Below are positions 39,121-51,757 of a stretch of DNA of 64,000 bases, in pieces. Where the stretch lies: positions 1,607-65,606 of the forward strand of contig DAOUGZ010000244.1 of the NCBI GenBank assembly GCA_034428955.1, in the 5' to 3' direction. Source of the stretch: Anaerolineae bacterium. Lineage in GTDB: Bacteria; Chloroflexota; Anaerolineae; SpSt-313. Numbering within the stretch: position 1 is the stretch's first letter; every line of letters begins with the position of its first letter. The notes beneath the pieces are model-generated. The model saw only the letters and a program-made list of their open reading frames with translations, made no database searches and was not told the origin of the DNA. A program made the translations under genes and the position numbers.

Positions 39121-39149
39121 TTGGCGGCGGCTGCAAGCCGTGCTAGAAT
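39121..39149 (+). promoter_or_regulatory. sigma70-type promoter for lpdA-MFS-creatininase
   Basis: TTGGCG (39121-39126), 17 nt, TG-C-TAGAAT (39144-39149). Confidence 0.6.
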
Positions 39150-39190
39150 GGGATGGGAGTGCCCCCCCAACAAGCGTATGGAGTGCAAAT

Positions 39191-40639
39191 GTGGCAGAGA
39201 ACAAGCAATACGATATCGCGGTCATTGGCGGCGGACCTGGGGGCTATGTGGCCGCCATCCGCGCGGCGCAACTGGGCGCTCAAGTCGCGCTGATCGAGAA
39301 GGAGCGCTTGGGCGGGATGTGCCTGAACTGGGGCTGCATCCCGACCAAGGCGCTGGTGCATCAGTCCGAATTGTACTCCGAAGTGTGTCGCGCCGGCGAG
39401 TTCGGAATCGACGTGAGCGGGCCGGTCCAGGTCAACTTCCCGCGGATGATGGCCCGCAAGAATGAGGTCGTCGAGACCCTGGTGAGTGGGGTGGAGACCC
39501 TCGTCAGGGCGCACAAGGTCGATGTGTATCCGGGTACTGGCACTATCCTGCAGCCCGGGCGGGTTCGGGTGAGCCCGAGTGTCTATCATCCAGACACGCG
39601 GCCGCAGGAGGTCGAGGCGCGCAGTCTGATTATCGCCACCGGCTCGCTACCCAAGCCTGTGCCCATCCCCGGGCACGACTTGCCGGGGGTTGTGGATGCG
39701 CGTGGGCTCTTGGATTGCACAGAGCAGCCCAAGACACTGGTCGTGATCGGGGCCAGTGCGTCGGGGACCGAGTTCGCCTCGATCTTTGCTGCGCTGGGCA
39801 CGCGGGTCATCCTGCTGGAGCGGGACGTCTTTCTCAGGGGTGCCGAGGAGCAATTGGCAAAGAGGTTCCGATCTTTGCTGGCTCGGCAGGGTGTCAGAAT
39901 CGAGGTTGGGCTCGAAACCAGACAGATCGTGCAGACGGGCGTGGGGAGCTTGCGTGTGGAGTACGAACGTGGCGGCCGGCCGGCGGCGGTGGAAGGGGAT
40001 CTGGTGCTGAATGCGACGGGCCATATGCCGTTCACGGGCGAGTTGGGCCTGGAGGCCATTGGGCTGGCCACGGAGCGCGGCGCGGTCACGGTTGACCAGT
40101 ACATGCAGACCCGTGTACCGGGCATCTATGCCATCGGAGACGTAACGGCCGTCTATATGCTGGCTCATGTGGCTTCGCATCAGGCCATTGTTGCCGTGCA
40201 CAATGCCCTGGGCCGGCGGGAGGCCATGGACTATCGCTCTGTGCCCAACTGTATCTACACATCGCCCGAGATCGCCGGCGTGGGGATGACCGAGCGCCAG
40301 GCCAAGGAAGAAGGGGTCGACTATGTCACAAGCCGCTTCCCATTCAACGTGAATGGCCGAGCGCTGGGCATGGGCGCTGCGGAGGGACAGGTGCGGATGA
40401 TCTGCGCGCGCGAGGCCAACGGGCGTGGTGGGCGAGTCCTCGGCGTGCATATCATGGGGCCGCGCGCGTCGGACCTGATCGCTGAGGCGGCGCTGGCCAT
40501 CCGCATGGGCGCAACGGCCGAGGATATCACCCACACCATCCATGCGCACCCGACGCTTCCGGAGGCGCTCATGGAGGCGGCCATGGACATGGGCGAGGGC
40601 GCTATCCATTACAAAAGGATCGGCGGGCGAGAGGCCTGA
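39191..40639 (+). CDS. lpdA: Dihydrolipoyl dehydrogenase
   Basis: IGGGPGGYVAAIRAAQLG, GGMCLNWGCIPTK (redox CxxxxC), IIATGS, IYAIGD, LAHVAS, HAHPTLPE. GTG start at 39191. Confidence 0.95.
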   Translation: MAENKQYDIAVIGGGPGGYVAAIRAAQLGAQVALIEKERLGGMCLNWGCIPTKALVHQSELYSEVCRAGEFGIDVSGPVQVNFPRMMARKNEVVETLVSGVETLVRAHKVDVYPGTGTILQPGRVRVSPSVYHPDTRPQEVEARSLIIATGSLPKPVPIPGHDLPGVVDARGLLDCTEQPKTLVVIGASASGTEFASIFAALGTRVILLERDVFLRGAEEQLAKRFRSLLARQGVRIEVGLETRQIVQTGVGSLRVEYERGGRPAAVEGDLVLNATGHMPFTGELGLEAIGLATERGAVTVDQYMQTRVPGIYAIGDVTAVYMLAHVASHQAIVAVHNALGRREAMDYRSVPNCIYTSPEIAGVGMTERQAKEEGVDYVTSRFPFNVNGRALGMGAAEGQVRMICAREANGRGGRVLGVHIMGPRASDLIAEAALAIRMGATAEDITHTIHAHPTLPEALMEAAMDMGEGAIHYKRIGGREA

Positions 40640-40653
40640 GCAGGGAGCCAACC

Positions 40654-42114
40654 ATGAGAAAGCTGCGCTGGTACGACCTGATCACCCACAATATCTACTG
40701 GCTGGGGCTCAGCATGGGCTCGGGGAGCCTGACCCCACTCATTCTGCCATACGTGGTGCAGCAGTTCGTGGGGCCGGATTTCAAGAACACGGCCTACGGC
40801 CTGCAGCGGGCGGCCGGGCTCATCGTGGCCATCCTCGTGCAGCCGGCCGCCGGGCTGCTCAGCGATCGCTGTACTTCGCGCTGGGGGCGCCGACGGCCCT
40901 TTATCGCCCTCGGCGCACTGCTCTCGGCGCTCTGTGTGCTGGCGGTTGGCGTGGCGCCCGGATACTGGCCGCTCCTGGCTGCCGTGCTCCTTCTCCAGTT
41001 CGGTTCAAACATTGCGCATGGGGCGCTGCAGGGCATCATCCCCGATCTGGTTGCCGAGAGCCAGCGAGGGCGTATGTCTGCGGTCAAGGCGATGATGGAA
41101 CTGGCGCCCACTGTCCTTGCAGCGTTCACCATTGCTCCGATGATTGACGCCGGGCAGGTCTGGCTGGCGCTCGGGGTCCTCGCCGCTTTCTATGTCGTCA
41201 CGATGCTGATTACCGTCTTTACCGTGCACGAGACGCCACTGCGCGAGGCGCCCGCGGGCAGCCTCCACCGGCCGCTCCTGCGCGTGCTCGGCCTCCTTCT
41301 GGGGGTTGTGCTGGGCGTTGTCGCCGGACTGCTGGTAGGGGGCGTGGGCGGCGGCCTGGCCGGCCTGGTGACCTGGGCGCTGGCCGGCGAGAGCCAAGCT
41401 TGGCTGGTAGGCGTCGGGCTGGGTGGGCTGCTGGCCATCGTAACCGCTATCGTCGCTGGAGTCTGGGTGGCGGTACATCTGGCAGCCGACGCGCGCCACT
41501 ACCCTTCGTTCACCTGGTGGGTGGTGAACCGCCTGCTCTACCTGGCAGCCATCGGCGCCGTGCAGGGCTTTGCCCTGTACTATGTTGCTGACGTGTTACA
41601 GGTGCCGAACCCGGCAGCGATCACCGGGCAGTTGATGGCCGTGGTGGGAGTGCTCTTGCTGCTGGCGGCGCTGCCCAGCGGCTTTCTGGCCGACCGCTTT
41701 GACCGCCGGCTGATTGTGGGGGTGGCCGGCCTAGTCGCCGCGACCGGAATCGTCATCTTGCTTCTCTCCGACAGCGTGGCGATGGTGATGGCTGCCGGTT
41801 GCCTGATCGGTGTGGCGACCGGCGTGTTCATGACCGTGAACTGGGCGCTGGGAACCGACCTGGTGCCGCCGGCGGAGGCCGGGCGCTTCCTGGGCATCTC
41901 GAACCTGGCCGGCGCGGGGGCGGGCATCGTGGCCTCGGGGATGGGTGGGCCTCTGGCCGACTATATCAACCGCACCAGCCCGGGTTTGGGTTATCAGGTC
42001 GTATTCGGCATATTCGGTGTGTGCTTTCTGCTATCGGCCGCTGTTCTGGCGCTTGTGCGGCGGCCTGCGCCGGCCGGCGCCGACGGCGCGGCGGGCGTTG
42101 TGGCGCCGGCGTGA
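40654..42114 (+). CDS. MFS transporter (sucrose/GPH-like) with enlarged hydrophobic central region
   Basis: GLLSDR..SRWGRRRPF, PDLV...QRG, GFLADRFDRR, WAL.TDLVP..EAGRF.G..N.A. Confidence 0.85.
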   Translation: MRKLRWYDLITHNIYWLGLSMGSGSLTPLILPYVVQQFVGPDFKNTAYGLQRAAGLIVAILVQPAAGLLSDRCTSRWGRRRPFIALGALLSALCVLAVGVAPGYWPLLAAVLLLQFGSNIAHGALQGIIPDLVAESQRGRMSAVKAMMELAPTVLAAFTIAPMIDAGQVWLALGVLAAFYVVTMLITVFTVHETPLREAPAGSLHRPLLRVLGLLLGVVLGVVAGLLVGGVGGGLAGLVTWALAGESQAWLVGVGLGGLLAIVTAIVAGVWVAVHLAADARHYPSFTWWVVNRLLYLAAIGAVQGFALYYVADVLQVPNPAAITGQLMAVVGVLLLLAALPSGFLADRFDRRLIVGVAGLVAATGIVILLLSDSVAMVMAAGCLIGVATGVFMTVNWALGTDLVPPAEAGRFLGISNLAGAGAGIVASGMGGPLADYINRTSPGLGYQVVFGIFGVCFLLSAAVLALVRRPAPAGADGAAGVVAPA

Positions 42115-42133
42115 CTCACAGGAGGGTGGAGAC

Positions 42134-42922
42134 ATGCGTTGGGAGAATCTGACGGGCGCGACGTTTGAGGGTGCGGTGGCGCAGGCACAGGGGGTGTGCA
42201 TCATTCCAGTGGGCGTTCTCGAGTACCATGGCCCGCACCTGCCGCTGGGCACGGATACGTTCCAGTGTCACGCTTTGGCCTGTGCGGCGGCGGAACGTGA
42301 GCCCGCAGTCGTGTTCCCGGCCTATCACTTTGGCGTGAATACGGAGACCAAGCACTACCCGGGCGGCATCGTGCTCAAGGACCGGCTCCTGTTCGAGGTT
42401 CTGGAGAACGTCTGCGAGGAGGTCAGCCGGAACGGCCTCAAGAAGATCCTCCTCCTGAGCGGCCATGGGGGAAACCGCTACTTCCTGCCCCTCTTTGTGC
42501 AACTGGCGCTGGACAAAGGGCGCGACTATACGCCCTACTACGTCGGCGGCTATGATGCCGATCCGGAGCTCTTCCAGCGCATCATGGAGACATCGCTGCA
42601 TGGGCACGCCTGCGAGTGCGAGACGAGCGTTGCCCTCTACTGTTTCCCAGAGCTGGTGCGTATGGACCTCTTGGGCGAGGGAAGCGCCTGGTCCTCGCAG
42701 AAGCGCTTGGCCCACCTGCCTGGGGTGTATACACCGGCCGACTGGTCGGCCCAGTTCCCTAAGCACTGTGCGGGTGACCCGCGGCCGGCGACAGCGGAGA
42801 AGGGCAAGGCCCTCTTTGAAACGCGTGTCGTTGCGCTGGCCAGGCTACTGGGGCAGATCAAGAAAGACCAGGCGGCCCCCCGTGTCTATGCCGAGTTCAA
42901 CGAGCGCATCTACCGGCGCTAG
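42134..42922 (+). CDS. Creatininase-family amidohydrolase
   Basis: P.G.LEYHGPHLPLGTD, SGHGGN, HACE.ETS, G.P..AT.EKG..L; RBS GGAG. Confidence 0.9.
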   Translation: MRWENLTGATFEGAVAQAQGVCIIPVGVLEYHGPHLPLGTDTFQCHALACAAAEREPAVVFPAYHFGVNTETKHYPGGIVLKDRLLFEVLENVCEEVSRNGLKKILLLSGHGGNRYFLPLFVQLALDKGRDYTPYYVGGYDADPELFQRIMETSLHGHACECETSVALYCFPELVRMDLLGEGSAWSSQKRLAHLPGVYTPADWSAQFPKHCAGDPRPATAEKGKALFETRVVALARLLGQIKKDQAAPRVYAEFNERIYRR

Positions 42923-42941: not shown

Positions 42942-43095
42942 CAGGCACCGGTTCGCCTCATCGTGTGCAGGGCGGCAGAGCTTGCACACGGTGAGGCGAA
43001 CTGGTGCCTGCGCGCTGTTCGGAGAAGGGGAGCGGAGTCACCTCACTGGCCTTGTGGCGAACGCGGGCGCCGGCCCAAATTCGCCGCAAGGCCAG
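42942..43095 (+). repeat. Two long inverted repeats (30-bp and 16-bp stems) downstream of creatininase
   Basis: Arms 42942-42971/42981-43010 and 43046-43061/43080-43095; all four non-WC pairs are G.U when read on the + strand. Confidence 0.85.
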
Positions 43096-43364
43096 GAGTG
43101 GTGCTTCGAAGGCCATGAAAGGGCGGCTGGAAGAGGCTGAGGAAAAGGCGCGGAGCCGGCATAAGGAACGTGAAGATAGCGTAAGCTTCCCATCTCCCTG
43201 GCGAGTATACGATAAGAAGATATCGACATAATATCGGACGCGCGTGGATGAATCGAAGTGGGGCGAGTGGCTTCGGGGCGGCTTGGCCCCGTGGTTGCGG
43301 CCGACGGCGGGATTGCGACGGACGTCGTGCGGACCGAGGAACATAAAGTGGCCTGAGAAGGCGA

Positions 43365-43410
43365 GAGCCGCCGGCGCGAGGATTTCCTCGCGCCGGCGGC
43401 TCCTTTCGTT
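43365..43410 (+). terminator. Intrinsic (possibly bidirectional) terminator
   Basis: Perfect 17-bp stem GAGCCGCCGGCGCGAGG/CCTCGCGCCGGCGGCTC (43365-43381/43386-43402) followed by CTTTCGTT on +; 26 nt past the DUF362 stop on -. Confidence 0.75.
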
Positions 43411-43428: not shown

Positions 43429-44526
<1,098 letters not shown>

Positions 44527-44617: not shown

Positions 44618-45844
44618 CTAGCCCAGTTCCCAAGCATTGTCGCAGACCTTGCGCACGATGGCCACAATGTCATCCATGTCCTCTCGGCTGCCCAGGAACG
44701 GGCTGTGCGGCAGCCACACGGTGGACTGGCCGAGCTTCTCGGCGATTGGCAGCCGGACGGTATGCAGGTTCATGCGCTCGGCAAAGGCATGGGCGACAGG
44801 ACTGTTTTGGGGTGTGGGGCGAAAGAGCGGATAGTTGTTCATGGCCGGGTAGCCCGTACCGGCCGGCAAGCCCTCCGCCTCCAGGGCGTCACAGAAGGTC
44901 TGGTTGTCGATGCCCGAAAAGCGGTCGCGGTCGAAGGCAAAGATGTAGCAGTATCCGCTTCGACGGATCACCTGAGGCGGCACCCTCTGCACGCGAATGC
45001 CCTCGATCCGGTCGAGCTCGGCATCGAGGTAGGCCACGTTGGGGGCACGCCGGGCCATCTGTTCTTCGAAGCGATCCATCTGAGCGTTCAGCAGGGCGGC
45101 CTGCAGCTCCGTGATACGATAGTTGGCGCCCAGGTGGTAGCGCTGCCGGGCTTTATCCTTGGGGCGGCCGCAGTCGATGATCGAGTGGACTGCTTCAGCC
45201 AACCGCCCGTCGTTGGTGACCAGGATGCCGCCCTCGCCGGAGGTCAGGAGCTTGCTCGACTGCAGGCTGAAGGAGCCCAGATGGCCAATGGCACCTGCCC
45301 CCTGTTCCCCCCAGAGGGTGCCGTGAGCATGCGCACAGTCCTCGACGACTACCAGCCCGTGCTCCTGCGCCAGCGCCATCATGGCGTCCATGTTGGCCAT
45401 GCTCATGCCCACATGGACGGGCATGATGGCGCGAGTCCGGCTGGTGACGAGTTGCCTGGCGTGGTCTACGTCCAGGCAATAGGTCTCCGGATCGACATCG
45501 GAGATGATGGGTATGGCGCCCACGCTCAGCACGGCGACTGCAGTGGCCGCAAAGGTATATCCGGGCACAATGACCTCATCGCCCCACCCGATTCCGGCCG
45601 CTTGCAGCGCTACCGATAGGGTGATGGTGCCATTAGCCATCGCGATGCCGTAAGTGGCTTTCTGCATCGCAGCAAAGCGAGCGGCAAAGCGCTCAGCCTG
45701 TGGACCCGGCTCGGGGAAGCCACCCCAGCGCCCCCCACGGATGACCTCGGCCACCGCGTTGACCTCGCGCTCATCATGCTGCGGCCAGCTCACAAAGGGC
45801 CGGGTTCGCAGCGGCGTTCCGCCATTGATTGCCAGCTTGGCCAT
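44618..45844 (-). CDS. DegT/DnrJ/EryC1/StrS PLP sugar aminotransferase, RifK (AHBA synthase)-like subgroup
   Basis: LAINGG.P.R...F.SWP..DE.E, ANGT..L..AL, GDEVIVP.YTF.AT, EDCAHAHG..W, SFSLQSSKLLTSGEGG (PLP Lys), GR.....Y..G.NYR..E.QAA.L. Confidence 0.9.
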   Translation of the reverse strand: MAKLAINGGTPLRTRPFVSWPQHDEREVNAVAEVIRGGRWGGFPEPGPQAERFAARFAAMQKATYGIAMANGTITLSVALQAAGIGWGDEVIVPGYTFAATAVAVLSVGAIPIISDVDPETYCLDVDHARQLVTSRTRAIMPVHVGMSMANMDAMMALAQEHGLVVVEDCAHAHGTLWGEQGAGAIGHLGSFSLQSSKLLTSGEGGILVTNDGRLAEAVHSIIDCGRPKDKARQRYHLGANYRITELQAALLNAQMDRFEEQMARRAPNVAYLDAELDRIEGIRVQRVPPQVIRRSGYCYIFAFDRDRFSGIDNQTFCDALEAEGLPAGTGYPAMNNYPLFRPTPQNSPVAHAFAERMNLHTVRLPIAEKLGQSTVWLPHSPFLGSREDMDDIVAIVRKVCDNAWELG

Positions 45845-46866
45845 CAGTTCTCCTCCTCGTTCTCCGTAGCATCGCCGCCGAGATAGCCTCGCACCTCTTC
45901 GACCAGACGCTGCTGGACCTCGGGCGTGACGGCGATCCCGGCGGCATCCATGGCCAGCAGTGCACTGCCCGCGACAGGCGCCGTCCGCAGCCGCACCGGT
46001 ACGGCCTGGGGGGCGACGGTGCGCACTGAGGCCAGTATGGCCCCCAGCAGCAGGTCACTGCCGGAGCGGAACACGCCCCCAGCGAGGACCAGGTCGAATG
46101 CCTCCTCGTGCATACCTAAGCGGCGAGCGATGGCCGCGGCGTTTGCGCCCAGCTCGCGGCCGACGTAACGGATGATGTCCTGGGCGACCTCGTCGCCCTG
46201 CGCAGCAGCCTGGAAGACCAGCGGGGCTTGCCGAGCACGCGGCGGCTCGATCTGGTGCCGGCAGAGCCCTTCGATTAGCGCCAGAGGGCCACTGGCCTTG
46301 CAGGCATCAACGAACAGCTCGGTTAGCAGTGTGGGCTTGCCGCGCCCCGTATACGCCTGGGCTACAGCCCGCATCGCCAGCCAGACAATGTCGCCTGCGC
46401 CGCCGACGTCGCCCAGCATCTGCCCTTCGCCGAAAGTGCGAAAGCGCTCGCCACGGCGGTTGCAGCCGGCGACGGTCGTGCCGGTGCCTGCAATGACCAC
46501 GACCCCCACGCCGTCGCGGGTCCCTGCGCGCAGGGCGCCGTAGGTGTCGTTGACGAGGACTTGCGGCCCCGGCACCCCCAGCCGCCCGACGACGGGCGCC
46601 AATCGAGCCTCGTCGCTCGGAAAGTCCAGCCCGGCGAGGGCGTAGCCGCCTGCGGAGAGGTCGCCTATCGTAAGACCTGCGGTGGCCAGAGCCTGGGTTG
46701 TCGCCGCCAGGTAGGTCTCATAGGCCCCTTCCAGCCCCACGCCCTCCCAGTTACCGGGCCCAGCGACTCCTGCGCCGCGCAGTTGCCCGTCTTCGGTGGC
46801 GATCAAGGCGTGGGTTTTGGTAGCTCCTGCATCAATGCCCAGAAAGCAGCGAGCCTGCATGCGCAT
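45844..46866 (-). CDS. BadF/BadG-type (NagK-like) sugar kinase
   Basis: FLGIDAGATKT, G..GPGN....G, AG.D...D, VND...AL..G, V..AGTG, G...GD.GG, LAGGVF. Stop overlaps the aminotransferase ATG (TGATG). Confidence 0.88.
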   Translation of the reverse strand: MRMQARCFLGIDAGATKTHALIATEDGQLRGAGVAGPGNWEGVGLEGAYETYLAATTQALATAGLTIGDLSAGGYALAGLDFPSDEARLAPVVGRLGVPGPQVLVNDTYGALRAGTRDGVGVVVIAGTGTTVAGCNRRGERFRTFGEGQMLGDVGGAGDIVWLAMRAVAQAYTGRGKPTLLTELFVDACKASGPLALIEGLCRHQIEPPRARQAPLVFQAAAQGDEVAQDIIRYVGRELGANAAAIARRLGMHEEAFDLVLAGGVFRSGSDLLLGAILASVRTVAPQAVPVRLRTAPVAGSALLAMDAAGIAVTPEVQQRLVEEVRGYLGGDATENEEEN

Positions 46867-46899
46867 CCCTAGCTCCTTTCGGATCCATTGTGCCCCGGG

Positions 46900-48168
46900 T
46901 CATCGATCGAACTGGGGGAGGTGGGGCGCATTCACCAGCAGCAGATCATCCAGGAGGGCCGGCGCGCGGTCGGCGCCCGGGCCGAGCGGATGGGCGATCA
47001 ACGCCATGAGTGCTGCCCCTCGGTCTCCACTCATCGCCGCCTCGGCAGCATAGAGCTCATAGGCCTTGACTGTGCGCACGAGGCTATCCGGTAGGGCCGG
47101 GAGTTCGCGGGCGGGCAACGGATGGACGCCGGATGCGTCGACGCGGCAGGGCAACTCACAGACCCAGTCCGCGGGCCAGCCTGCTACCGCCCCGAGGTGC
47201 CTTGTGTTGATAATGTGGATGTCTCCACGGTTGCTATGGAGAGAGTTGATCAGTTGCACCGCGGCCGTGGAGTAATAGGCGCCGCCGCGCAGCATCAGTT
47301 CGTCAGGCAGCGTGGTGAGGCTAGGATTGGCGTATTGGGCCAGCGTGTCCCTCTCGATCTCCATCACTTGCTCCGCGCGCGAAGGCCCGGTCTGCTGCGC
47401 GATGACGGCTGCAGTGCGGTAGTAGTAGCGCAGGTAGTAGCTCGGTATGGCTTGCAACAGCTCAGCCAGGTAGGGCGGACATGCCGGGTCAGGCTCTTCG
47501 CTGAGGGTCCGGAGCCACTCGGCAAAGACCTGCGGCCACACATCCTCGCCCTTGACTTGCGCACCACTGAGCCAGCTCAGGTGGTTGAGGCCGAGGTAGT
47601 CCAGCTCGACGTCGCGGGGCTCGGCTCCGGTCTGGGTCGCGATGCGCATCTGGTAGCCGATCGGCGAGTTGCACAGGCCGACGGAACACGTCTCGGGCGC
47701 ATAGCGCTGTAGCGCTTCGGTGACCAGGCCGCTGGGGTTGGCAAAGTTGATCAGCCAGGCACTCGGGCAGAGGCGTTGCATATCACGGGCGATGCCGACG
47801 ATCACCGGCACGGTTCGTAGCGCCTTGGCAAAGCCGCCGACACCGGTCGTCTCCTGGCCGACCAGGCCCCAACGGCGACCCAGGTGCTCATCCTCCCGCC
47901 GGGCTGCCATCCCCCCTACCCGAATCTGGGTGACTACGAACCGCGCCCCCGCCAGAGCTTGCTCTCGCTCGGTTGTCAGGTGGACCTCGAAAGGGCTACC
48001 CGCTGCCGCTACCAAGCGTCGGGCGAACCCGCCGACAGTCTCCAGCCGGCCCGGATCGATGTCCATCAGCCAGAGCTCTTTGAGAGAGAGGTTGGCAGCG
48101 CCCTGGACGAAGCCGCTGACCAATTCGGGGCTGTAGGTGGAACCTCCGCCAATTACGGCTATCTTCAT
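46900..48168 (-). CDS. GH4 6-phospho-beta-glucosidase (ChbF/LicH-like)
   Basis: KIAVIGGGSTY.PEL, Q.RVGG..AR..DE.L, GQET.G.GG..KALRT, NFANPSG, GLCN.P, GLNHLSW, RGGAYYS. Confidence 0.92.
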   Translation of the reverse strand: MKIAVIGGGSTYSPELVSGFVQGAANLSLKELWLMDIDPGRLETVGGFARRLVAAAGSPFEVHLTTEREQALAGARFVVTQIRVGGMAARREDEHLGRRWGLVGQETTGVGGFAKALRTVPVIVGIARDMQRLCPSAWLINFANPSGLVTEALQRYAPETCSVGLCNSPIGYQMRIATQTGAEPRDVELDYLGLNHLSWLSGAQVKGEDVWPQVFAEWLRTLSEEPDPACPPYLAELLQAIPSYYLRYYYRTAAVIAQQTGPSRAEQVMEIERDTLAQYANPSLTTLPDELMLRGGAYYSTAAVQLINSLHSNRGDIHIINTRHLGAVAGWPADWVCELPCRVDASGVHPLPARELPALPDSLVRTVKAYELYAAEAAMSGDRGAALMALIAHPLGPGADRAPALLDDLLLVNAPHLPQFDR

Positions 48169-48222
48169 CGTGCAGTTCCCTTTCTGACCATAGTGGGGGT
48201 GCGGCCCCCCATCGCTGGTGGG

Positions 48223-49116
48223 CTAGGCCCCGCGCATGAGGTCACGCAGCATCCGGTAGCCGATGAGCTTGATGCCCAGATTGCGCACATAGTTGCGCAG
48301 GTCGGGGCTCAAGAAGGCCTGATAGTTGGCGACACGACATTGCCAATCGGGCGCAATGGCGCGCAACTCGGGCGTATCCACGGCTGGGTGGATGATCAGG
48401 TGGGTCAGCCCAGGTGGGAGGGAGCCGAAAACCTTCTTGGCCAGCGGCACATGGTCGCCGGGCTGGTCCAGGGGGAGGCCGGTCAGATAGTCGAGCAGCG
48501 GCAGGCCTTGTTCCTCTAGCTGCTGCACGAGCATGGCTGCGAGGGAGGCTGTGTGCGAGTCCATGCCCATACTGCGCCAGCCGGCCTCGTCCATGCGCAA
48601 GATCATCGGCGGCAGGCCGTGCTCCCCGGCTAACTGGACGTAACCGAGCATGAACTTGGGGTGGGCGACGGCCCCCATGTGGGTGTCCAGGTGCGTCACG
48701 TCGATGCCGGCCGCCAGCGCCCTTTCCATCTGGGCGGCAAGCTCCATCTGCACGGCTTCGGGAGTGCCATGCTCCTGCACGGCCTCTGAAGTGTGATGGA
48801 AGTACCCCTCGCTATCCAGCAGGCCCGAGGCGGCATCGCGGGTGGAAAGCGGCCCCCAACGGTAGGCTTCGAACTCGGAGGTCAGGGTCGAATGTACCCC
48901 CAGGTCTGCCTGGGGATGCTCGCGGCAGAAAGCGGCGACGGCCGGGAACCAGGGGCAGGGCGTCATGATGGCCCCTGAGGTAACAAGCCCGAACTCGAGC
49001 AGTTCGGCCAACGCCGGGAGGGTGGCCTGGCACATCCCGACGTCGTCGGCGTGGACGATCACGACACGGTCGGTGTCGGCCAAGCCGAGTTTGCGCAGAA
49101 CGGGGTTGGGGTTCAT
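48223..49116 (-). CDS. chbG: ChbG/YdjC-family carbohydrate deacetylase
   Basis: HADDVG, SG..M.PCPW, G.H.TL.SE, THLDTHMG, H...HP. Confidence 0.88.
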   Translation of the reverse strand: MNPNPVLRKLGLADTDRVVIVHADDVGMCQATLPALAELLEFGLVTSGAIMTPCPWFPAVAAFCREHPQADLGVHSTLTSEFEAYRWGPLSTRDAASGLLDSEGYFHHTSEAVQEHGTPEAVQMELAAQMERALAAGIDVTHLDTHMGAVAHPKFMLGYVQLAGEHGLPPMILRMDEAGWRSMGMDSHTASLAAMLVQQLEEQGLPLLDYLTGLPLDQPGDHVPLAKKVFGSLPPGLTHLIIHPAVDTPELRAIAPDWQCRVANYQAFLSPDLRNYVRNLGIKLIGYRMLRDLMRGA

Positions 49117-49443
49117 CGGGTTCCCTCCTGTTACCTGTCGGATGGAGGGCGCTGGGGGCGCCGCCCAGGTGTCGATGGAATTTCACACAGTATGGGCTGT
49201 CCGAGTCCAACGTATGACCTTATGATACGTCAGGCTCTCGATCCTGCAAAACGACTTGCCCCGAACGGATAACCTGGCCCGCGAGCCTTGCGACGACCGC
49301 CCTCTGCACCATTTCGTGCCCCAGGGCTCGGCGTTGTATAATACACACGGCTCGCTGGCAGAGCCGCTCATATCGGCGTGGAGGATTGTGAGGAAGCTGA
49401 GCGCCAGTCTGCGCTCGCGGGTGTTCCAACCAAGGAAGGTATC

Positions 49444-50841
49444 ATGCCAAGCAACCAAGCCTGTTCTGAGCCCATAGACATCAAGATTGCCTACGTCGGC
49501 GGCGGAAGCCGCGGCTGGGCGCGCAACTTGATGCGCGATTTGGCCCTCTGCCCCGACCTAACAGGAACGGTGGCCCTGTACGACATCGACCTGGAGAGCG
49601 CCCGGTTGAATGAGCGTCTGGGTAACTGGCTACAGGGCCGGCCAGGAGTTGTCTCTCACTGGCGTTACCAGGCTGTTCCGACTCTCGAGGAGGCACTACA
49701 GGGCGCCGATTTTGTGGTCATCTCTATCCAGCCGGGTTCATTGGAGTGTATGGCCAGCGAAGTGGCCATCGCCGAGCAGCACGGGTTGTTCTTCCCCGTC
49801 GGAGACAGCACCGGCGCGCCCGGCTTGATGCGCAGCCTGCGCGCTGCAACCATCTATGCCGGCTTTGCCCGGCACATCGCTGCGATATGCCCTGCGGCCT
49901 GGGTGATCAACTATACGAACCCGATGACGGTGTGCACGCGAACGCTGACGCGGGTCGAGCCTGGCCTCAAAGTCTTTGGTTGCTGCCATGAGGTGTTTGG
50001 GACGCAGCGATTGCTGGCCGGCCTGGTTAGCGAATACTTGGGCGTCTGCCCCGTTCCTTCGCGCGATGAGATCCGGGTGAACGTCCTGGGCATCAATCAC
50101 TTTACCTTCATCGACCGCGCGTTCTACCAGGATCACGACCTGCTGGCCCTGTTGCGCGAACACATCGCCAAGCCGGGCACTATGCGCTCCTACACCCGGG
50201 TAGAAGTGGAAGGCTGGGGGAGCTGGTTCCGCGATGGGTCGCAGGTCAAGTTTGAGCTATTCCGGCGCTTTGGCCTGCTCGGGGCGGCGGGCGACCGGCA
50301 TCTTGTCGAGTTTCTGCCGGGGTTTATCCGTTCGCCGGAAGAACTATTCCGTTGGGGCGTCATCCGCACGCCGATCTCCTACCGCATGCAGCGCTGGATC
50401 GATGCGCGCCAAGAGACGCTGGACATTCTGGCCGGCCAGACTTGCTTTGCTCTTGATGCCTCCGGCGAGGAGGGGGTAGCCCAGATGCGCGCGCTTTTGG
50501 GGCTGGGCGATCTGGTGACCAACGTGAACGTCGAGAATGTGGGCCAGATACCCAACCTGCCATTGGGGGCCGTTGTGGAGACGAATGCATACTTTGGCCG
50601 CGATGAGGTTCGTCCGCTCAATGCCGGCCCGCTGCCTCCCGGACTGCACGCCTTGATCGCGCGGCACGTGGCTAACCAGGAGATGATCATCGATGCCGCG
50701 CTGAAACGAGACAGCGACTTGGCCTTCCAGGCCATCTTCAACGACCCGGCGAACCACCTGCCCCTTGATGAGGCGGCGGCGATGTTCAACGAGATGCTGC
50801 GGGCGACGCGCGAGTATCTGCCCGGCTGGCGCATAGACTAA
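49444..50841 (+). CDS. GH4 alpha-glycosidase (alpha-galactosidase/alpha-glucosidase subgroup)
   Basis: KIAYVGGGSRGW, GD.TG..G..R.LR, NYTNPM, GCCHEV, G.NHF, G.AGDRH..EF, SGEE, N..N.GQI.NLP.G..VETN. Confidence 0.9.
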   Translation: MPSNQACSEPIDIKIAYVGGGSRGWARNLMRDLALCPDLTGTVALYDIDLESARLNERLGNWLQGRPGVVSHWRYQAVPTLEEALQGADFVVISIQPGSLECMASEVAIAEQHGLFFPVGDSTGAPGLMRSLRAATIYAGFARHIAAICPAAWVINYTNPMTVCTRTLTRVEPGLKVFGCCHEVFGTQRLLAGLVSEYLGVCPVPSRDEIRVNVLGINHFTFIDRAFYQDHDLLALLREHIAKPGTMRSYTRVEVEGWGSWFRDGSQVKFELFRRFGLLGAAGDRHLVEFLPGFIRSPEELFRWGVIRTPISYRMQRWIDARQETLDILAGQTCFALDASGEEGVAQMRALLGLGDLVTNVNVENVGQIPNLPLGAVVETNAYFGRDEVRPLNAGPLPPGLHALIARHVANQEMIIDAALKRDSDLAFQAIFNDPANHLPLDEAAAMFNEMLRATREYLPGWRID

Positions 50842-50860
50842 AGGTGATGAGGACCGCTAC

Positions 50861-51757
50861 ATGAACGAGCCCACAATGCACGAGTTCTCAGACCTCTTTG
50901 CGGCCCCCGGCTCCTGGTATCGGGGCAATCTGCATACGCACACAACCGAATCCGACGGAGCTTATAGCCCTGCTGAGACGGCTGCTTGGTACAGAGAGCA
51001 TGGTTATGATCTGGTGGTGGTTACCGATCACAACCGCCTGACGGACGTGGATGGGCTGAGCGATCCGGGTTTCTTGGTTCTTCCGGGCATCGAAGTCCAT
51101 CCGGATTGCGATGCGCTGGGAGAACCCTACCACATCGTGGCCGCCGGGGTGAGTTGCGAGGTGTCTTTCACCCGTGCAGACCCTGCCCAGGCAGCGATTG
51201 ATGCCTTGCGCGAGCAGGGCGCTGTGGTGTGGCTAGGGCACCCCTACTGGATTGGTATGACTCTGCCCGAGATGATCGACCTGCAGGGAACCATCGGCCT
51301 GGAGGTGTACAACGCGACCTGCGCGCGGGTCGGCAAAGGGCTGTCAACCGTTCACTGGGACGATCTGCTGGCACGCGGTAGGCTGCCCCTGGCCTTGGCT
51401 GTGGATGATTGCCATGCCGACCAGGACCTGGGTCGTGGCTGGGTGATGGTCAAGGCTACGGAACTCTCGCGCGAGGCCATTCTGCAGGCCCTGTCTGCGG
51501 GCCGCTTTTATGCAACACAAGGGCCCGAGATTCACGATGTGCAGGTGACGGGCGACGAGGTGTACGTGCGCTGCTCCCCAGTGTGTGAGATCACGTGTGT
51601 GAGCCTGGCCGGCTCGGGCAGTCAGGTCGTTGCCGCCGACTCCGGCGAGGGGCTCACCGAGGCGACGTTCTCTTTGCGCAGGTGCCGGGTGTATCTGCGA
51701 ATAGAGTGCACCGATGCCCAGGGGCGTGTGGCCTGGTCTCAGCCGATGCTCTTGTGA
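50861..51757 (+). CDS. PHP-like metallohydrolase (CehA/McbA family)
   Basis: WYRGNLHTHTTESDG, VTDHN, GIEVH, GHPYW, GLEVYN, AVDDCH, L..GRFY.T.GP, Y.R.EC.D. Confidence 0.82.
   Translation: MNEPTMHEFSDLFAAPGSWYRGNLHTHTTESDGAYSPAETAAWYREHGYDLVVVTDHNRLTDVDGLSDPGFLVLPGIEVHPDCDALGEPYHIVAAGVSCEVSFTRADPAQAAIDALREQGAVVWLGHPYWIGMTLPEMIDLQGTIGLEVYNATCARVGKGLSTVHWDDLLARGRLPLALAVDDCHADQDLGRGWVMVKATELSREAILQALSAGRFYATQGPEIHDVQVTGDEVYVRCSPVCEITCVSLAGSGSQVVAADSGEGLTEATFSLRRCRVYLRIECTDAQGRVAWSQPMLL

Follow-up and report, generated by a model that had tools for sequence, protein, structure and literature searches.

Relation to described amino-sugar systems

The described systems closest to the locus reported here are the chb operon of Escherichia coli (ChbBCARFG) and the csn cluster of Streptomyces and Kitasatospora. 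The locus is a run of four genes in a 64,000-nucleotide stretch of DNA (the window) on contig DAOUGZ010000244.1 of an Anaerolineae bacterium (assembly GCA_034428955.1, contig positions 1,607 to 65,606), and the genes encode a YdjC/ChbG-family deacetylase, a GH4 glycosidase, a BadF-type sugar kinase, and a DegT-family aminotransferase (AT). On balance we favor reading it, from the sequences of its products and their gene context, as a catabolic operon that is independent of the phosphotransferase system (PTS) and fed by the kinase, that probably degrades an N-acetylated amino-sugar beta-glycoside, and that would add a transamination branch absent from described pathways. The likeliest substrate is one of the chitobiose or chito-oligosaccharide type. 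We know of no such pathway in which AT has been given a role, although its gene stands beside the others in dozens of uncultured species. What is new is this uncharacterized transamination branch on an otherwise Chb/Csn-like, PTS-independent system.

The core of the chb operon, ChbG plus ChbF, places side by side the same two families as the YdjC and GH4 genes of the window, and the shared logic is de-N-acetylation followed by NAD+/Mn2+-dependent cleavage of a 6-phosphorylated, beta-linked amino disaccharide. The window cluster differs from chb in lacking the PTS components EIIABC and ChbR, in that the 6-phosphate likely comes from the ATP-dependent BadF kinase, and in having the DegT aminotransferase as an extra gene. 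The csn cluster (csnR-csnEFG-csnH-csnK, where csnH encodes a GH4 enzyme) serves chitosan-derived glucosamine oligosaccharides, with ABC uptake and a ROK repressor, and no aminotransferase, Gfo/Idh/MocA protein, or deacetylase is mentioned in its descriptions (PMC5635096; bioRxiv 10.1101/2023.09.20.558697). Its combination of non-PTS uptake, a GH4 enzyme, and a sugar kinase is a precedent for the design of the window cluster, and the Actinomycetota relatives of AT resemble csn in having a ROK gene, a substrate-binding protein (SBP), two permeases, GH4, a kinase, and MalK around AT. There are also differences: CsnK is called a ROK-family protein in one of the csn papers, whereas the kinase here is of the BadF type, and the window holds neither a ROK repressor nor a CsnEFG-like importer, whereas ABC genes are present at the locus of the nearest relative (L001) and ROK plus ABC genes at the Actinomycetota loci. 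No Streptomyces protein was found among the best 120 matches to an Actinomycetota GH4, which were proteins of metagenome-assembled genomes (MAGs) only. Neither chb nor csn, as described, has an aminotransferase, a Gfo/Idh/MocA protein, or a ceramidase-like amidase.

The four-gene cluster and its first three products

The cluster consists of four co-oriented open reading frames (ORFs) on the minus strand, all of them intact, with a promoter-like site in front:

49222..49250, minus strand: promoter-like -35/-10 pair 5' of the YdjC gene (TTTGCA, 17 nt, TATCAT; 9/12 consensus positions), a consensus match alone
48223..49116, minus strand: YdjC/ChbG-family carbohydrate de-N-acetylase, 297 aa, operon gene 1 (PF04794)
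46900..48168, minus strand: GH4 NAD+/Mn2+-dependent glycosidase, 6-phospho-beta-glucosidase clade, 422 aa (Glyco_hydro_4 and Glyco_hydro_4C)
45844..46866, minus strand: BadF/NagK-type sugar kinase, 340 aa (PF01869), translationally coupled to AT
44618..45844, minus strand: DegT/DnrJ/EryC1-family pyridoxal phosphate (PLP) aminotransferase (AT), 408 aa (PF01041), of an uncharacterized orthologue group

In the order of transcription, the genes are spaced by 54 nt and 33 nt and then overlap by 1 nt. The overlap of kinase and AT reads TGATG (junction sequence gaggaggagaacTGATGgcc), and a Shine-Dalgarno-like run lies within the 3' end of the kinase gene. The ORF coordinates and the junction bear out the preliminary description of this DNA, which had reported four co-oriented genes with this spacing and TGATG coupling. 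That description had also reported no PTS and no Gfo/Idh/MocA dehydrogenase. Pfam and NCBIfam annotation likewise found no genes for a PTS, a regulator, a dedicated transporter, or a Gfo/Idh/MocA protein in the cluster or its flanks, but the absence of the last is local only, since 29 of 81 related loci carry one. Because of the Gfo/Idh/MocA gene at those loci, GH4 need not be what supplies the keto group.

The YdjC protein matched Pfam PF04794 (YdjC) over its whole length (E value = 1e-52) and the NCBIfam carbohydrate deacetylase model at 6e-50, which is under the cut-off of that model; its top PDB matches, full length, were 8jqe (YdjC family protein, 3e-39) and TTHB029 (2e67, 1.5e-26). The GH4 protein matched the Pfam models Glyco_hydro_4 (5e-56) and Glyco_hydro_4C (5e-42) and aligned end to end with PDB entries 5c3m (E value = 1e-106), 1s6y (1e-105), and Thermotoga maritima BglT (1up4, 1e-86); its best PDB matches were all 6-phospho-beta-glucosidases. 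In alignment it retains the GLCN(S/V)PI and GLNH segments with their Cys and His, and it has CNSP at residues 166 to 169, a motif that, following the GH4 literature, we take to be specific to the 6-phospho-beta-glucosidase clade. These matches agree with the analogy to ChbG and ChbF drawn in the preliminary description.

The kinase matched Pfam PF01869 (BcrAD_BadFG) at 2e-27, and its best NCBIfam model was NagK_SO3507 (1e-26, under its cut-off). Its nearest PDB entries were a MurNAc/GlcNAc kinase (8zo3, 3e-26) and an entry titled hexokinase (2e2n, 3e-24). The earlier proposal that a kinase takes the place of the PTS is supported. A search of the organism's own genome (5.04 Mb, 92.8% complete) did not find EIIC (PF02378).

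The aminotransferase and its relatives

AT matched Pfam PF01041 (DegT_DnrJ_EryC1) at 2e-89. Dehydratases of the DegT family carry a His where the aminotransferases have the PLP-binding lysine. AT has this lysine (K198, within SLQSSK), which was invariant among 32 orthologues together with NGT, D169-x-A-H172, and TSGEGG, and it is by its lysine and family motifs a PLP aminotransferase, as opposed to the His-bearing dehydratases. The nearest relatives by sequence were the 2-deoxy-scyllo-inosose aminotransferases BtrR and RbmB (265 bits, E value = 1e-77, 33 to 36% identity), followed by 3-amino-5-hydroxybenzoate (AHBA) synthase/RifK (202 bits, E value = 1e-58, 31% identity), while NtdA was a distant match (87 bits, E value = 2e-23). 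A Foldseek search with the AlphaFold model of AT (pLDDT 95.8) gave an order that agrees with the order by sequence: RbmB (5w70, TM score 0.92, 36% identity), BtrR (33%), AHBA synthase (31%), and Fic25 (31%), with TM scores of 0.87 to 0.92 to BtrR and RbmB and with nucleoside diphosphate (NDP)-sugar aminotransferases placed below all of these. The preliminary description had called AT RifK-like, a label that by this ranking appears only roughly right: BtrR and RbmB come first, and the resemblance is not specifically to RifK.

The PDB titles of two of these relatives name non-nucleotide ligands, namely, a 2-deoxystreptamine (2-DOS) aldimine for BtrR (5w71) and an N2-acetyl-DADH adduct for Fic25. 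AHBA synthase/RifK also accepts a UDP-sugar. BtrR and RbmB belong to biosynthetic clusters with a 2-deoxy-scyllo-inosose synthase, whereas AT occurs in catabolic-looking operons with repressors, importers, glycosidases, and deacetylases; no such synthase was found in the window flanks or among the annotated recurrent neighbor clusters. We read AT as a putative catabolic transaminase acting on a non-nucleotide amino sugar, with a ketoreductase acting next. Its homologues at 50 to 77% identity number in the thousands and carry generic annotation only (DegT/DnrJ/EryC1/StrS family aminotransferase, or dTDP-4-amino-4,6-dideoxygalactose transaminase).

Conservation of the AT neighborhood

Our sample comprised 80 loci with AT orthologues, from Chloroflexota, Actinomycetota, and a few MAGs labeled Bacteroidota, plus 3 contigs obtained by exact protein look-up. 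The loci were searched with the window proteins, the neighboring ORFs were clustered de novo, and the frequent clusters were annotated. Partner counts were taken from non-overlapping gene maps of 81 loci and refer to genes within 7 kb of AT. The kinase was near AT in 41 of the 81 loci and GH4 in 32, and the two occurred together in 25. A Gfo/Idh/MocA gene was present in 29, often adjoining AT. An N-deacetylase or amidase was found in 40 loci, whether a ceramidase-like amidase of about 400 aa (24 loci), YdjC (13), CE4 (8), or PIG-L (6). A transporter of any kind was near AT in 44 loci and MalK in 11, and repressors were of the LacI (11) and ROK (9) families. At least one core partner was present in 63 of the 81 loci (78%). 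The gene directly 5' of AT was most commonly the kinase (18 loci), followed by the ceramidase-like amidase (15) and Gfo/Idh/MocA (5). GH4 orthologues near AT were 45 to 58% identical to the GH4 of the window, and YdjC orthologues, in 13 to 16 loci, were 43 to 65% identical to its YdjC.

The usual gene order in Chloroflexota, with optional genes in brackets, was [LacI] [SBP-permease-permease or major facilitator superfamily (MFS) transporter] [Gfo] GH4 [YdjC] kinase [amidase] AT. In Actinomycetota, a Gfo-permease-permease-SBP-ROK run pointed away from AT and was followed by GH4, a SIS gene resembling GlmS-C/NagB-II, CE4, the kinase, and MalK. The nearest relative, L001 (AT 77% identical), had the order GH4-kinase-AT-amidase-SBP-permease-permease-PIG-L, and another genome of this class, complete at 2.6 Mb, had the bare GH4-kinase-AT trio. 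In a quick maximum-likelihood tree of AT, the GH4/kinase context was spread over every clade, including that of the Actinomycetota, and because it is scattered across all of them, the linkage has long been maintained. Chance adjacency is excluded, since no more than 2 homologues of this kinase occur in the window's own genome, set against its presence in 41 of 81 AT loci. Recurring linkage had been set beforehand as a test of the idea, and AT proved to be conserved beside GH4, the kinase, and YdjC across three phyla.

Other amide hydrolases were found beside AT as well, including a histone deacetylase (HDAC)-like deacetylase and an amidase-signature amidase accompanied by a short-chain dehydrogenase/reductase (SDR), and at one locus AT stood beside a GH35/GlmA-like glucosaminidase and a Gfo/Idh/MocA protein. 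Besides the amide hydrolases, the second steady partner of AT was a dehydrogenase (Gfo/Idh/MocA or SDR). The partner Gfo/Idh/MocA proteins matched IolG best, and also UDP-GlcNAc 3-dehydrogenase, levoglucosan dehydrogenase, aldose-aldose oxidoreductase, and DgpA. The partner PIG-L proteins scored highest against BshB1-type deacetylases. The ceramidase-like amidase had no sequence match in the PDB, and the ESM Atlas gives it an alkaline ceramidase family label and no more. Single database proteins join AT to a full-length ceramidase-like amidase, to an amidohydrolase, or to Gfo/Idh/MocA (P0121, P0124, and P0125); these fusions are weak evidence because they are singletons and possibly artifacts of assembly or frameshift. 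AT-bearing clusters were common among MAGs from sludge, sediment, and soil. Loci of an Aggregatilineales type (L079:6053-11254, L039, L041, L061, and L011) combine an SDR, an amidase-signature amidase, a lactate-permease-like transporter, and AT but lack both GH4 and the kinase.

A proposed route with a transamination branch

The pathway that we propose is deduced throughout from homology and gene context. The glycoside would be imported by a transporter encoded elsewhere in the genome; the clusters of relatives include a CUT1 ABC system or an MFS gene. The ChbG-like YdjC protein would then take off an N-acetyl group, and the BadF kinase would use ATP to phosphorylate O-6, in place of the PTS. 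GH4 would cleave the resulting 6-phospho-beta-glycoside by NAD+/Mn2+-dependent oxidation-elimination to give an amino-sugar 6-phosphate and the aglycone sugar. AT would transfer a ring amino group of a non-nucleotide amino sugar (or its phosphate) onto a 2-oxo acid. The keto sugar so formed would be converted by a Gfo/Idh/MocA-type reductase to an ordinary hexose (or its phosphate); the gene for this reductase would be outside the cluster here and is inside it in many relatives. On the simplest reading of the gene content, the recurrent partners may form a three-step module, from N-acyl amine to amine to ketone to alcohol, with the kinase placed before it. The run of kinase, deacylase, transaminase, and reductase might be viewed as an analogue of NagK/NagA/NagB assembled from unrelated enzymes.

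A more ambitious version of this idea is that the locus represents an undescribed route, parallel to NagK/NagA/NagB, in which the amino group of a non-nucleotide N-acetyl-amino sugar is removed by transamination and ketoreduction rather than by deamination, most strikingly at C3; we regard this version as a tentative possibility. If the C3 form were true, AT would make, from a 3-amino glycoside or sugar phosphate, a 3-keto species of the kind handled by GH4 and Gfo/Idh/MocA enzymes, which amounts to the kanosamine pathway run backwards. In the open-access literature, we found no description of a GH4-kinase-AT pathway, of kanosamine catabolism, or of a link between a DegT protein and a 6-phospho-beta-glucosidase. 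Since all four cluster proteins are small and soluble, the model is directly testable in vitro.

Several observations weigh against the pathway as drawn. In the window, the cluster lacks genes for a transporter, a regulator, and a Gfo/Idh/MocA protein. Phosphorylation of a disaccharide is an assumption, because the kinase resembles monosaccharide 6-kinases (MurK and the archaeal hexokinase). A transaminase for glucosamine 6-phosphate (GlcN-6-P) would be redundant because of the NagB-type candidates in AT-bearing genomes and the SIS gene in the Actinomycetota AT clusters. Most kinase homologues in a 201-genome sample of the phylum have no adjacent AT, which makes AT an accessory part. Finally, in a subset of AT loci the kinase and AT genes are preceded by genes for a galactokinase-like GHMP kinase, a sugar-1-phosphate nucleotidyltransferase, and an SDR epimerase/dehydratase, which could hint at an NDP-sugar substrate.

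The redundancy was judged from gene content. No classical NagB was found in the window's own genome, which holds a NagB-II-like SIS protein (255 bits) and 3 NagA homologues, and NagB-I or NagB-II-like candidates were found in all five of the other AT-bearing genomes tested. With NagB-type candidates in its own genome and in 5/5 others, a role for AT as a simple NagB replacement was rejected.

NAD-dependent sugar enzymes are very abundant in the same genome: hidden Markov models derived from the neighbors of AT found about 45 Gfo/Idh/MocA homologues, about 17 GH4 paralogues, and 8 DegT-family proteins. It has a second operon of SBP, two permeases, BadF kinase, and GH4 (C32, L085:7946-13714, minus strand), with no deacetylase and no AT. 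The kinase-fed GH4 design is thus employed more than once in this genome, and the lack of both a deacetylase and an aminotransferase in the second operon ties AT to substrates with an amino or N-acetyl group. On another contig (C192:349-4192), a homologue of PTS enzyme I (591 bits, over the cut-off) adjoins a NagA homologue; it could be part of a different PTS class or of a phosphorelay with a regulatory or Dha-type role. A paralogous aminotransferase, scoring about 400 bits against the family model, lies in a long gene run (C312, L084:3355-16849). The run holds a 2-hydroxyacid dehydrogenase, an enolase-superfamily enzyme, a ceramidase-like amidase, a D-aminoacylase-type amidohydrolase, the aminotransferase, a xylose-isomerase-like TIM barrel protein, a second ceramidase-like amidase, a Gfo/Idh/MocA protein, a uroporphyrinogen decarboxylase (URO-D)-like protein, and a second enolase-superfamily enzyme. 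This run resembles a pathway for an N-acyl amino-sugar acid, possibly one for oxidized chitin products.

Position of the amine and rival explanations

If AT does transfer a ring amino group, C3, by a reversed kanosamine route, heads our list of candidate positions, as a provisional choice, with C2 of glucosamine second; some other position seems rather unlikely, and an amine on an aminocyclitol aglycone seems unlikelier still. In favor of C2 are that the deacetylase families that partner AT (YdjC, CE4, and PIG-L) are, to our knowledge, all known for 2-acetamido groups, and that csnR-K, with its ABC importer, GH4, and kinase, serves glucosamine oligosaccharides. In this case, the partner glycosidases would release glucosamine or GlcN-6-P.

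The rival that survives best, put forward in the preliminary description, takes the substrate to be a 3-amino or 3-acetamido (kanosamine-type) glucoside, with AT interconverting the 3-amino and 3-keto forms, and thereby producing or consuming the 3-keto species that GH4 chemistry relies on, and with the kinase, AT, and reductase reversing RifN/RifK/RifL or NtdABC. The kanosamine enzymes (RifK/RifL/RifN and NtdA/NtdB/NtdC) comprise a DegT-fold aminotransferase, a Gfo/Idh/MocA protein, and a kinase or phosphatase for glucose-type substrates, and the same three families recur around AT as a trio resembling RifN, RifK, and RifL. We know of a single precedent for transaminating a non-nucleotide sugar phosphate, that of NtdA/KabA, which act at C3, and AHBA synthase/RifK is the second-closest solved relative of AT. 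The partner Gfo/Idh/MocA proteins fit not only IolG but also the models for UDP-GlcNAc 3-dehydrogenase and levoglucosan dehydrogenase, and on a C3 amine, unlike one at C2, AT would not duplicate the NagB-type genes. However, the kanosamine pathways run biosynthetically, NtdA itself is distant from AT, and the window cluster has no Gfo/Idh/MocA gene; the 2-acetamido preference of the partner deacetylases also speaks against a 3-acetamido substrate. Furthermore, GH4 enzymes are unable to oxidize a glycon without a 3-OH, so that a 3-amino sugar is possible only as the aglycone, and 3-amino hexoses are rare in nature, whereas MAGs from sludge, sediment, and soil commonly carry the cluster. We consider a kanosamine-type substrate unlikely.

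Two other explanations are less probable again, to a similar degree. In the first, the amine sits on an aminocyclitol aglycone (scyllo-inosamine or a 2-deoxystreptamine-type aminoglycoside fragment), and AT catalyzes a reversed BtrR/StsC-type reaction once GH4 has cleaved the glycoside. The 2-deoxy-scyllo-inosose aminotransferases are nearest to AT by sequence and fold, the partner Gfo/Idh/MocA proteins score highest against inositol 2-dehydrogenase IolG, and the top scores of the partner PIG-L proteins against BshB1-type deacetylases are also consistent with it. Yet the identity of AT to BtrR/RbmB is merely 33 to 36%, the annotated neighbor clusters include no iol genes and, as noted, no 2-deoxy-scyllo-inosose synthase, and the cluster seems too widespread for such rare substrates.

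In the second, AT is an anabolic or salvage enzyme for an envelope NDP-amino sugar and merely shares an operon with sugar-salvage genes. DegT-family proteins are mostly NDP-sugar aminotransferases, YfhO or Wzy-type envelope genes flank some loci, and the sugar-1-kinase, nucleotidyltransferase, and SDR genes 5' of the kinase and AT in the subset described above would fit such a role. Against it, the neighborhood is dominated by LacI/ROK repressors, CUT1 ABC importers, glycosidases, and deacetylases, NDP-sugar aminotransferases are not the closest folds and rank lower, and no conserved glycosyltransferase was found near AT.

Last, that YdjC, GH4, and the kinase fully degrade chitobiose alone and AT is a functionally unrelated passenger is very improbable: on paper, these three enzymes would be enough when combined with the NagA and NagB-II-like genes found elsewhere in the genome, and kinase-GH4 modules in the phylum sample mostly lack AT, but the linkage of AT to them spans three phyla and every clade of the AT tree, and translational coupling joins AT to the kinase in this window.

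Flanking genes

Three features lie on the 3' side of AT:

44602-44574: promoter-like site in the gap between AT and the DUF362 gene
43429..44526, minus strand: DUF362 protein, 365 aa (PF04015, 1e-23), 91 nt 3' of AT
43365..43402, no strand assigned: perfect 17-bp GC-rich hairpin, terminator-like, closing converging units, with a T-run on the plus strand

No DUF362 homologue was found near AT in any of the 83 loci, and the gene is probably a local passenger outside the conserved system. The intergenic region between the converging units (42942-43410) is rich in hairpins, the last of them being this 17-bp stem. Converging on the cluster from the other side (39140-42922, plus strand) are genes for a dihydrolipoyl dehydrogenase, an MFS transporter with weak GPH-family matches, and a creatininase-family amidohydrolase; the last has weak matches to MftE, creatininase, and IolN and a homologue in 1 of 83 AT loci. 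The divergent neighbor (49378-51757, plus strand) encodes a GH4 enzyme very near Bacillus subtilis LplD, an alpha-galacturonidase (3fef, E value = 9e-137; CHEV motif), with a gene for a CehA/McbA-type PHP metallohydrolase 3' of it, and this pair probably serves another glycoside. The DUF362, creatininase-like, MFS, PHP hydrolase, and second GH4 genes were rejected as members of the system, being present in 0 or 1 of 83 AT loci.

Significance

Soil, sediment, and sludge hold much carbon and nitrogen in the form of amino sugars, which come from chitin, chitosan, peptidoglycan, and bacterial glycans, and in textbook amino-sugar catabolism the nitrogen is taken off as ammonia by NagB-type deaminases. 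If the proposed pathway is true, a widespread, repressor-controlled operon with a sugar transaminase, usually together with a deacylase and a ketoreductase, would solve this differently by conserving the nitrogen as an amino acid, and it may open amino sugars beyond the reach of NagA/NagB. It would also assign a function to the large, generically labeled orthologue group of AT and to the bacterial ceramidase-like amidase family, which is without a solved or characterized member.

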